From Eledone cirrhosa (lineage: Eukaryota), in the NCBI GenBank assembly GCA_964016885.1, contig OZ024759.1, positions 22,320,001 through 22,384,000 of the forward strand: a stretch of DNA of 64,000 nt, read 5' to 3'. Within the stretch, counting starts at the first letter, position 1. Each line of letters starts with the position of its first letter. Of the stretch, positions 16,474 to 24,890 are shown piece after piece. The notes below the pieces were generated by a model. The model had not been told where the DNA came from and ran no database searches. It worked only from the letters and a program-made list of their open reading frames with translations. Both the position numbers and the translations under genes were made by a program.

Positions 16474-16676
16474 ACTTTAAGAGAGACTTTAAGCAACGGG
16501 GTAGCATACCTGCACGAAGGACTCAACGACACTGAGCGCAAAGTGATTGAGCAGCTGTTTATGAGTGGAGCAATACAGCTGGTGGTGGCCTCACGTAATC
16601 TCGGCTGGGGAATGACCATGGCATCTCATCTGGTCATTGTAATGGATACACAGTACTATGATGGCAAAGCGCACTC
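16474..16676 (+). CDS. SNRNP200: SNRNP200 exon 16
   Basis: acag|[17 protein letters not shown]...[10 protein letters not shown]|gtaagt. Confidence 0.97.
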
Positions 16677-16789
16677 GTAAGTGGTCATATCATTAAATTA
16701 TGTGTGTATATTTTGCGGGTCTTATTCGGGATATCAGAGCTCCTCTGAGATAATAAAGGGCAGGGGGTTGTGTTTGTGTATGTTAGTCA

Positions 16790-17632
16790 TTTCTACTGTA
16801 TTTTTCCATAGCTATGAAGATAATATATATTCTATACTTAACTTTCTACTGTATTTTTCTGTAGCTATGAAGATTTTTATATATTCTATACTTAACTTTC
16901 TACTGTATTTTTCTGTAGCTATGAAGATAATATATATATTCTATACTTTACTTTCTACTGTATTTTTCTGTAGCTATGAAGATTTTTATATATTCTATAC
17001 TTTACTTTCTACTGTATTTTTCTGTAGCTATGAAGATTTTTATATATTCTATACTTTACTTTCTACTGTATTTTTCTGTAGCTATGAAGATTTTTATATA
17101 TTCTATACTTTACTTTCTACTGTATTTTTCTGTAGCTATGAAGATTTTTATATATTCTATACTTTACTTTCTACTGTATTTTTCCGTAGCTATGAAGATT
17201 TTTATATATTCTATACTTTACTTTCTACTGTATTTTTCCATAGCTATGAAGATTTTTATATATTCTATACTTTACTTTCTACTGTATTTTTCTGTAGCTA
17301 TGAAGATTTTTATATATTCTATACTTAACTTTCTACTGTATTTTTCTGTAGCTATGAAGATTTTTATATATTCTATACTTTACTTTCTACTGTATTTTTC
17401 TGTAGCTATGAAGATTTTTATATATTCTATACTTTACTTTCTACTGTATTTTTCCGTAGCTATGAAGATTTTTATATATTCTATACTTTACTTTCTACTG
17501 TATTTTTCTGTAGCTATGAAGATTTTTATATATTCTATACTTTACTTTCTACTGTATTTTTCTGTAGCTATGAAGATTTTTATATATTCTATACTTTACT
17601 TTCTACTGTATTTTTCCGTAGCTATGAAGATT
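16790..17632 (+). repeat. 54-bp minisatellite, 16 copies of the exon-17 splice acceptor
   Basis: ctatgaagatttttatatattctatactttactttctactgtatttttctgtag. Confidence 0.97.
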
Positions 17633-17772
17633 ATCCAATCACGGATGTACTGCAGATGTTGAGCCGTGCTAACAGACCACTCCAAGACCAGGAAGGGAAA
17701 TCCGTTATACTCTGCCAGAGCTCGAAAAAGGAATTCTTCAAGAAATTTCTATACGAACCATTACCTGTCGAG
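17622..17772 (+). CDS. SNRNP200: SNRNP200 exon 17 (second motif VI); acceptor is the last unit of a 54-bp tandem array
   Basis: cgtag|[20 protein letters not shown]...YEPLPVE|gtgggt. Confidence 0.95.
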
Positions 17773-18162: not shown

Positions 18163-18304
18163 TAATAATTTTGTTTTTCGTTCATTCTATTTTGATAGTC
18201 AAACCCATTTTTTTATCATATTGTCAAACAAAGATACTTCATCATCATCATTTAATGTCCATTTTCCACACTAGCATGGGCTAGACGAATTGTTCTGACT
18301 ACCA

Positions 18305-19090
18305 TTTTGCAGAGTGAACTGGGTGTCTTTGTTCATGGCACCACCGCTACTACTTTACAGAGTGTACTGGGTGTATTTTATCATGGTACCAACACTACTA
18401 CTTTACAGAGTGCACTAGGTGTATTTTTATCATGGCACCAGCACTACTACTTTACAGGGTGTACTGGGTGTATTCTATCATGGCACCACCACTACTACTT
18501 TACAGCATGTACTGGGTGTATTTTATCATGGCACCAGCACTACTACTTTACAGGGTGTACTGGGTGTATTCTATCATGGCACCACCACTACTACTTTACA
18601 GCATGTACTGGGTGTATTTTATCATGGCACCAGCACTACTACTTTACAGGGTGTACTGGGTGTATTCTATCATGGCACCACCACTACTACTTTACAGGGT
18701 GTACTGGGTGTATTCTATCATGGCACCAGCACTACTACTTTACAGGGTGTACTGGGTGTATTCTATCATGGCACCACCACTACTACTTTACAGCATGTAC
18801 TGGGTGTATTTTATCATGGCACCACCACTACTACTTTACAGGGTGTACTGGGTGTATTCTATCATGGCACCACCACTACTACTTTACGGCATGTACTGGG
18901 TGTATTTTATCATGGCACCAGCACTACTACTTTACAGGGTGTACTGGGTGTATTTTATCATGGCACCAGCACTACTACTTAGCAGGGTGTACTGGGAGTA
19001 TTTTATCATGGCACCACCACTACTACTTTGCAGGGTGTACTGGGTGTATTTTATCATGGCACCACCACTACTACTTAGCAGGGTGTACTA
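18305..19090 (-). repeat. 48-bp minisatellite related to the RTE 3' UTR motif, about 16 units
   Basis: catggcaccagcactactactttacagggtgtactgggtgtattctat; follows an RTE tail at about 18240-18290. Confidence 0.95.
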
Positions 19091-19300
19091 CTTGAACAAA
19101 CTACTCAACCATATAAAAATAAAAATTATGGATCTTCTAGAAGCTGCTAAACTAGTTCCTATAATGGGCATCATCAAAAACAAAGTCCTGAAGCTCTTTG
19201 GTCATGTAAAGCATTCACAGAAATGTCTTTTTAAAACATGTAAGAAGTGTCAAGTATTTGTATTATATATATTCTTCAGGTGTGACATGAAATATCAGTA

Positions 19301-19606
19301 GTCACTCCAGATAGAGCCGCTACTTCTCCGAATTGAGAGGTCACACCTCCAATGCTATGGACATGTAGTGAGAATGTCTCAGGAAAGAACCACTGGACAG
19401 ATTTTAAAGTCAAAACCAACAGGCAAGAGACCCAGGGGTGGTAGACCCCAAGCAAAATGGATAACATCCCTGAGCTTGGCTGGTCATGCATGGGGATCCA
19501 GCTGGATCAGTTGGAGACAGTTGCTTCTGACAGGACCTGCTGGAAGGAGTGTTTGAGGAGTCTGCCTCCATGACCCTCTCAGGAAAAGTGGGCAAAGAAG
19601 AAGAAT
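19301..19606 (+). mobile_element. 5'-truncated RTE-like fragment with (AAG)n tail; a related copy lies at about 10010-10200 (-)
   Basis: YGHVVRMSQERTTGQILKSKPTGKRPRG.P..W; flanked by a direct repeat containing cttcaggtgtgacatgaaatatcagta. Confidence 0.75.
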
Positions 19607-19771
19607 ATATTATATCATATATCTCCTTCAGGTGTGACATGAAATATCAGTATTAATATTAGTATTATAAATATTCTTCAAGTGTGACATGAAGTCATCA
19701 GTAATAATATCTTCTTCAGGTGTGTCATGAAATCATCAGTATTAATAGTTATATTATATAATCTCCTTCAG

Positions 19772-19848
19772 GTGTGTCACATCGTCATTTATCAGATCAT
19801 CTCTCCGAACTTGTTGAGAATACCATCAATGATTTAGAACAATCAAAG
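19772..19848 (+). CDS. SNRNP200: SNRNP200 exon 19
   Basis: ttcag|[27 protein letters not shown]|gtaaga. Confidence 0.96.
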
Positions 19849-20500: not shown

Positions 20501-21050
20501 CCTGCTGGAAAACCCCTTCCTTCTTTAGTCATCTCTAGTGTGTGTTGGACAAATACACAAGGGTTATTATTCACAGTGATTACAGACATTTGATGTTCAC
20601 TCAGGATGTATCTTGTTCTTTTTGTCTGTGTTGACTATGTCACCCATCTAAGCTGTCATTATAAACTAGAGGATTGGCAGTAATTGGTAGAGCGTCAGAC
20701 ACCATGCTTTTCAGCATAGAGTTACGGCCCTTTACGTTCTGAATTCAAATCCTACCATGGTTGGCTTTGCCTTTCATCCTTACAGTGGGGGGTCGATAAA
20801 ATAAAGTACCAGTAATTGCTGGCCTTGTGCCAAAAGTAAAAACAATTATTAGCTAATAAGTCTTTTGTTTACCAGTGTATCAGTGTTGACGATGTCACAC
20901 ACAGGCTGTTTATAGAAGCTAATCTATCTTTAGGTTATCACTCTTCGTGTGTACTCTAGGAATGTAATCCCCGTAAATACTTGAGGACAACTGTATTCTG
21001 TTTGTTAATGTATCAGTGTCAACAATGTCACACACAAGCTGTCACTATAA

Positions 21051-21170
<120 letters not shown>

Positions 21171-21237
21171 TGAAAACTTGTTACTCTAATGAAAGTCATT
21201 ACTTATGACAGCTGGTTTTGCTCCCTAACACCAACCA

Positions 21238-21859
21238 TTTTACAGAGTGTACTGGGTGCATTTTATTGTGACACCAGCACTACCACTTTACAGAGTGTAC
21301 TGGGTGTATTTTGTGACACCAGCACTACTACTTTATCAAGTGTAGTGCAGTATATTTTATTGTGACACCAGTACTACCATTTTACAGAATGTACTGGATG
21401 CATTTTATTGAGAAACTAGCACTACTATTTTACATAGTGTACTGCAGTATATTTTATTGTGACACCTGTACTACCACTTTACAGAGTGTACTGGATGCAT
21501 TTTATTGTGACACCAGTACTATCACTTTACAGAGTTTACTGCAGTGTATTTTATTGTGACACCAATACTACCACTTTACAGAGTGTACTGCAGTGTATTT
21601 TATTGTGACACCAGTACTTCCACTTTACAGAGTGTACTGCAGTGTATTTTATTGTGACACCAGTACTTCCACTTTACAGAGTGTACTGCAGTGTATTATA
21701 TTGTGACACCAGTACTACCACTTTACAGAGTGTACTGCAGTGTATTTTATTGTGACACCAGTACTTCCACTTTACAGAGTGTACTGCAGTGTATTTTATT
21801 GTGACACCAGTACTACCACTTTACAGAGTGTACTGCAGTGTATTATATTGTGACACCAG
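21238..21859 (-). repeat. 49-bp minisatellite related to the RTE 3' UTR motif, about 13 units
   Basis: gtgacaccagtactaccactttacagagtgtactgcagtgtattttatt; preceded by cctaacaccaacc from the RTE UTR. Confidence 0.95.
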
Positions 21860-21949
21860 TGTAATATTTCTGTAATGATATCTGTGTCTTAGTCTGTAGA
21901 ATGTCTGGTAAATTTGCACCATTCTGTGATTTCTCTTCCCTTCTTTCAG

Positions 21950-24505: not shown

Positions 24506-24890
24506 TCATCATCATTTCATTTTATTTTACGTCCACTTTTCCCTGCTTGCAAGAGTGGGACGGGAACTGATTCTGGCTTGATTTCTACAGCTGGATGCCC
24601 TTCCTAACACCAACCTCATTTTCAGTGAGTGCTGGTGCTGTTTTCCTGTGGCGCCTACACGTCCACTTTACAGTGTGGGCTGGGTGCTTTTTTGCCGTGG
24701 CACCTCCACGACCACTTTGCAGTGGAATGATAGAGACCCCAATCCCTATCATCTCATTTCTACAGCTGAGTAAACTGGAGCAACGTGAAATAAAGGGTCT
24801 TGCTCAAGGAAACAACACATCACCCGGTCTGAGAATTAAACTCACAACCTTTCTATTGCAAGGCCAATGCTCTAACCACTAAGCCATGTG

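Follow-up and report, generated by a model that had tools for sequence, protein, structure and literature searches.

An array of acceptor-bearing 54-bp units at an intron-exon boundary of the Brr2/SNRNP200 gene of the octopus Eledone cirrhosa, and use of its last copy in an assembled transcript

Minisatellite-like duplications of intron-exon boundaries that carry the splice signals along with them are known from amphioxus as mirages; the portions of PMC3087553 consulted report length instability, homogenised inner units and undisturbed regular splicing, and those of PMC3902484 agree. The hosts named there are Adh3, the globins BflGb6 and BflGb9, troponin C and PGBD5 (PMC3087553, PMC3902484). 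In the literature outside subscription journals, the term mirage was found in lancelet papers only, and no octopus report of such arrays was found. Human junction-spanning VNTRs listed in the consulted part of PMC1557585 are those of F7 IVS7 (37 bp, 5–9 times), CBS IVS13 (15–20), 6-16 (25 pseudo-sites), lamin B2 and PDGF. According to the same source, F7, lamin B2 and PDGF use the true site only, and CBS and 6-16 also use the two nearest pseudo-sites. Effects of tandem repeats on splicing are common in humans according to PMC10078293, in whose consulted portions no acceptor-array case was found.

The window analysed here is a stretch of 64,000 nucleotides (contig OZ024759.1, positions 22,320,001 to 22,384,000, forward strand) from the genome of E. 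cirrhosa, which comprises 3.0 billion bases. It contains 26 exons which, when spliced, give an open frame of 1,324 residues. The exon that ends at the donor of the array intron was found to match residues 1608–1674 of human Brr2 (PDB match, E 7e-37). Seventeen more exon matches lie wholly upstream of the window on the same contig; the exon behind the array, designated exon 17 in the earlier note, is therefore the 17th of the window and, counted over the whole gene, the 34th coding exon or a later one. Exon numbers below are those of the window.

The array itself has a period of 54 bp with 15.6 copies and 97% matches (TRF), and its composition is 22% GC and 54% T. Each unit consists of 44 intron bases (a branch-point-like motif, a pyrimidine tract and YAG) followed by 10 exon bases, so that this is a minisatellite-like tandem duplication spanning an intron-exon boundary. 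The AGs end at 16811, 16864, 16918, 16973, 17027, 17081, 17135, 17189, 17243, 17297, 17351, 17405, 17459, 17513, 17567 and 17621, that is, at spacings of 53, 54 and 55 bp and then twelve times 54 bp from 5′ to 3′. Fifteen of these are decoys and the last is the true acceptor, 23 nt upstream of which lies the A (17598) of a predicted branch-point-like TTTAC. YAG is kept in 16/16 units, and all 16 junctions read AG|CT. These positions and the unit length are those given in the earlier note; its count of sixteen copies holds for the AG ends, but the first of these belongs to a partial copy that has 22 intron bases instead of 44.

The expected coding consequences were likewise confirmed. The conserved HSYEDYP junction arises from AG 17621 only; the five decoys at 17351–17567 leave the frame open and would add between 18 (17567) and 90 (17351) residues; the ten decoys 5′ of 17351 lead to a stop or a frameshift. 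Use of AG 16811 would leave an intron of 135 nt. An in-frame TAA, described before as a stop gate, does exist, but the TTAAC variant that creates it is not unique, being present in three units (16838, 16892 and 17325). The frame-preserving character of the unit is also real but unsurprising: 62% of shuffled composition-matched units are stop-free in the coding frame, which together with the roughly 1-in-3 chance of a length divisible by 3 gives a joint chance of about 0.2. Among 71 homologous proteins, the stretch in which the insertion would fall has the same length, 20 residues, in 60/60 measurable matches. This constancy suggests that insertions at the junction are poorly tolerated.

Features of the array locus and of the neighbouring acceptor echoes (window coordinates)
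Feature	Position	Strand	Evidence or details
Upstream Brr2/SNRNP200 exon (16th in window), ending at donor of array intron	16474..16676	+	PDB match
Unique 5′ part of 945-nt intron, GT donor at 16677	16677..16789	+	Single-copy depth in X1
54-bp minisatellite (mirage)	16790..17632	+	TRF, AG positions, depth support
First, partial acceptor copy (22 intron bases, AG end 16811)	16790..16811	+	
In-frame TAA from TTAAC unit variant	17326..17328	+	
True acceptor AG	17620..17621	+	X4 joint
Downstream exon (151 nt, 44% GC, 17th in window)	17622..17772	+	
Degenerate, older echoes of exon-19 acceptor	19255..19779	+	AG ends 19279, 19631, 19719; dead copy 19681; true AG 19771
Degenerate echo of exon-20 acceptor	20860..21096	+	AG end 20875; partial copy near 21008; true AG 21077

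Compared with the amphioxus mirages, the Brr2 array shows the same tandem duplication of the 3′ end of an intron and the start of an exon with the AG signals intact, its 54-bp unit lies within their reported range of 10–160 bp, its inner units are homogenised with the edge units set apart, and regular splicing is kept. At 97% matches overall, inspection of the units shows that indels, like the partial copy, occur at the 5′ edge only and that point variants form a recurring pattern: the inner units are in concerted evolution, and the boundary units stand apart. It differs in belonging to another animal lineage, in having a spliceosome helicase gene as host, and in its 16 copies, as against 3–6 in BflGb6. 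With the human VNTRs it shares the many-fold reiteration of a splice site, similar copy numbers and use of the copy that touches the real exon; unlike this array, which repeats the acceptor, those repeat the donor. Whereas the two nearest pseudo-sites are used in CBS and 6-16, only the true acceptor was found in the Brr2 transcript contig described below; their use in those two genes means that silence of the Brr2 decoys is not guaranteed.

The array could be an artefact of assembly, either with an inflated copy number or with no duplication in the DNA at all. No read in the data examined spans it as a whole, and a DNA run (X1) gave a flank contig in which the first acceptor is followed by the consensus unit, whereas the assembly has a 53-nt variant there (two letters and one inserted base at 16820); this discrepancy may reflect graph merging or an allele difference. 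In the same run, however, the contigs made up of unit sequence only have depths of 163.4 and 125.3, and the unique contigs 12.4–13.9. The resulting ratios to single-copy depth, 12.7x and 9.7x, compare with 11.5x and 9.5x expected from the assembly; word depth estimates copy number only roughly, and X1 is possibly the sample used for the assembly itself. The short-read word depth thus fits the assembled copy number. Unit sequence is also entered by unique contigs from both sides, one of 537 nt that extends from the upstream exon past the first acceptor to the unit and one of 330 nt that leads from the unit into the downstream exon, and the variants among the units are patterned. We therefore consider an artefact extremely unlikely.

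A contig from another run (X4), 6,687 nt long with a depth of 31.8, joins 16676 directly to 17622. Its alignment begins at exactly 17622, the upstream side stops at 16676 apart from loose letters that equal those following 17621, and positions 1597 and 1596 of the contig record are adjacent across the joint. It shows 0 differences over the three exons compared, the upstream exon among them, covers exons only on the stretches compared and also leaves out the following intron at GT..AG. In length it agrees with a whole mRNA, with 1,416 nt of exons and about 180 nt of UTR downstream of the joint and 5,091 nt upstream. The type of the run is not recorded, and we judged it to be cDNA from the GT..AG joint and the exon-only cover. 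This was the single X4 contig on either exon, and it is unbranched across the junction. X4 has no contig on unit or intron sequence, an absence of cover that we did not take as evidence. Our results indicate that the major transcript skips all 15 decoys, as the earlier note had supposed the spliceosome must do unless it splices stepwise, and that regular splicing is undisturbed in the major isoform in this one sample. The RNA evidence is one assembled contig of one run; contigs drop rare variants and stop-bearing forms that are targets of NMD are depleted in them, so the productive junction is the only one found in contigs and leakage of a few percent may have gone undetected.

To rank the acceptors we used a matrix built from 141 predicted myosin and kinesin acceptors, which had been picked with a window-trained matrix, so that the scores give a rough ranking only. 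It superseded an over-fitted matrix of 24 sites under which all 16 sites of the array were negative. The true acceptor scored 5.6, and the decoys 7.7 (n = 11), 5.6 (n = 2) and 5.2 (n = 2). Splice signals are thus well kept in the units, 13/15 decoys scoring at least as high as the true site, which is the second lowest of the 25 acceptors of the window. Intrinsic strength does not favour the true acceptor, so the choice must come from context. It is followed by a 151-nt exon of 44% GC that ends in a donor; behind each decoy, after 10 nt, comes U-rich intron repeat of 22% GC, and the implied exons would be 205–961 nt long. Exon definition is expected for introns longer than about 250 nt, with preference for the sites closest across the exon, according to the consulted part of PMC9225289, which deals with human data; the array intron measures 945 nt.

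On these grounds the array is quite probably a tolerated minisatellite without a regulatory role, whose last copy would be chosen by exon definition. The spliceosome would define the exon from its own ends, and only the last copy adjoins the full 151-nt exon and is the one closest to the downstream donor. Scanning from the last predicted branch point (A at 17598) would reach 17621 first. Every unit has its own branch-point-like motif and its own AG, so the rule that the first AG after the branch point is used remains unbroken and nothing special has to be invoked. If any of the ten far decoys were used now and then, the transcripts would have premature stops and would probably be cleared by NMD. 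Neutral expansion had been the fallback reading of the earlier note, and it fits the evidence.

RNA structure was considered as a selector and rejected: the predicted probability that the AG is unpaired is 0.16 at the true site and 0.00–0.26 at 14/15 decoys (0.66 at 17243), and the pyrimidine tract of the true site is predicted to be less open (0.44) than those of the decoys (0.54–0.82). The lowest-scoring acceptor of the gene, with −2.4 out of sample, was that of exon 11 (12857), which has almost no pyrimidine tract beside its AG and keeps the reading frame.

The decoys could nevertheless matter without any evolved switch. If a few percent of transcripts were spliced to 17567, or to 17567 and 17513, the C-terminal helicase cassette would gain 18 or 36 hydrophobic residues, and the length of the allele would slightly change the dose of functional Brr2. 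That 11 decoys outscore the true site and that the frame is open from the five nearest ones speak in favour of such leakage, as do the use of the two nearest pseudo-donors in human 6-16 and CBS (PMC1557585) and the commonness of repeat effects in humans (PMC10078293), both taken from the consulted portions of these sources. Against it stand the sole X4 contig on these exons, which is unbranched at the junction, the 20-residue stretch that is constant in 60/60 measurable matches among 71 proteins, and the amphioxus mirages, which in the consulted portions of PMC3087553 leave splicing undisturbed. Leakage of this kind appears unlikely to us.

It is a long shot that the array acts as a length-variable dial, in which altered Brr2 or altered 3′ splice-site fidelity would lead to decoy use, giving a longer C-terminal cassette from the near decoys and NMD substrates from the far ones, and unit number would set the Brr2 dose between individuals. 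Were decoy use regulated, this would amount to repeat-tuned feedback on a core spliceosome enzyme, of which we know no earlier case. A selected rheostat, as proposed in the earlier note, demands more: the level of Brr2 or the number of units would shift the choice to stop-bearing decoys, and NMD of the products would buffer Brr2. Autoregulation through unproductive splicing (AS-NMD or poison exons) is common among splicing factors, and this gene resembles such systems in that it encodes a splicing factor, the core spliceosome helicase, and that ten of its alternative acceptors would give a premature stop or a frameshift. However, the five likeliest decoys are those nearest to the exon and would escape NMD, whereas a poison switch would place its stops there; the stop variant TTAAC recurs in three units; no unproductive isoform was present in the contigs, which drop rare forms; the unit is absent from the acceptor contig of the one informative relative (X6); and a similar structure occurs in a kinesin family, at background frequency. 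A report of SNRNP200 autoregulation was also absent from the titles and opening abstract lines of the literature matches listed (15 of 140). The proposal was not supported by these results, and we consider a selected rheostat highly unlikely. Removal of the intron unit by unit was the other suggestion that failed. Recursive splicing likewise involves several acceptor-like sites within one intron, here 16 at even spacing, and its ratchet points need AG|GT. In this intron of only 945 nt, AG|CT stands at every site, so no donor would re-form, and the GTs within the unit score −2 to −4 as against 3.1–13.2 for the 25 true donors (which were also the training set). Stepwise splicing is almost certainly not what happens here.

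As to the origin of the tolerated minisatellite, a segment of about 54 bp that happened to span the acceptor would have been duplicated, and expansion by unequal exchange or slippage would then have made the inner units uniform but not the 5′ edge, which is degenerate. In the relative (organism C, X6), the match of the acceptor contig to the window begins at 17606, only 16 nt upstream of the AG, and no fit to the unit was found in the 77 bases that it has further upstream. This hints at a lineage-specific array but is weak evidence, because the intron has diverged anyway and only one relative was informative; 20 differences are listed in the 203-nt upstream exon of X6. The comparison of runs covered the array as two flanking stretches, and at neither of them did run X5 (organism B) give any cover. 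Elsewhere in the E. cirrhosa genome, the unit was not found among the matches listed, of which one candidate was scored.

The locus can serve as a natural reporter of acceptor choice: an essential gene is spliced past 15 decoys, most of which outscore the real site, so that exon context seems to weigh more than intrinsic strength. The mirage class of amphioxus is also extended to another lineage. Arrays that span junctions can mislead gene prediction and short-read mapping.

Two further acceptors of the window, those of exons 19 and 20, are preceded by degenerate echoes (see table). Two of the exon-19 echoes outscore the true site (11.2 and 11.0 vs 9.0), and the farthest echo, at 19279, stands about 350 bp away from the others; the sequence in between is unrelated, has a short GAA run at its end and may be a retroelement insertion by which an older array was split. 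The exon-20 echo includes about 18 exon-like bases and lies 202 nt upstream of the true acceptor. Counting the main array, echoes were found at 3/25 acceptors vs 0/25 donors of the window, which had raised the possibility that acceptors are duplication hotspots. We rejected this in view of the upstream half of the gene, where 0/17 predicted acceptors have an echo, and of 1/139 acceptors in independent genes.

The independent sample consisted of 178/179 myosin and kinesin matches with their flanks (one antisense overlap was excluded). The boundary finder recovered 22/24 acceptors and 23/24 donors of its own training exons; a score cut kept 146 acceptors and 164 donors of 178, and collapsing near-identical exons left 139 and 157. 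At 1/139 of these predicted acceptors and 3/157 of the predicted donors, a duplication was present within 500 bp, with the junction as its outermost copy. This amounts to about 1% of acceptors (95% interval 0.02–3.9%) and 2% of donors, a first base rate for the genome. The background was 569/12,860 (4.4%) and 570/14,238 (4.0%) of intron positions and 5/298 (1.7%) of acceptor-like AGs; the background positions come in clusters and some may lie in other exons, which makes P values rough. Junction duplications are thus not above the intron background and are perhaps depleted. For Brr2, the 3/42 acceptors with echoes compare with a background of 2.5%; P is ~0.09 if the picked array is counted and 0.28 if it is left out. 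The three acceptors with copies (exons 17, 19 and 20) fall within four consecutive exons; the tolerated minisatellite as the best explanation does not account for this clustering, which counts against it.

In one kinesin family, a similar array was found at a predicted acceptor; the matching copies upstream of it number 2 at locus L056, 8 at L058, 6 at L061 and 4 at L062. These loci (on contigs C22, C1636 twice and C18) are near-identical, with alternating 50/70-bp units just upstream of the kinesin match; contig C1636 is unplaced, and its two loci may be allelic or have arisen by recent duplication. Echoes on the donor side, downstream of the exon matches, consist of three donor-like copies at L012 and one extra copy each at L014 and L140 (the L140 donor is weak), and at L071 a 33-bp array begins directly beside the donor.

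Arrays with a period of 30–150 numbered 84 in the 474,602 bases of the sampled loci, about 18 per 100 kb (some loci overlap). Within the window, intronic minisatellites with periods of 46–49 bp were observed at 6441–6817, 9354–9637, 18298–19089, 21234–21860, 24619–24724, 42326–42426 and 47911–48023, most of which look as if they derive from one dispersed repeat. The array at 6441 differs from the others and stops 28 nt before the exon-5 acceptor, which it does not include. Simple-repeat tracts of (TA)n and TA/TG occupy 50265–52422 (2.2 kb) and 57340–63640 (6.3 kb).
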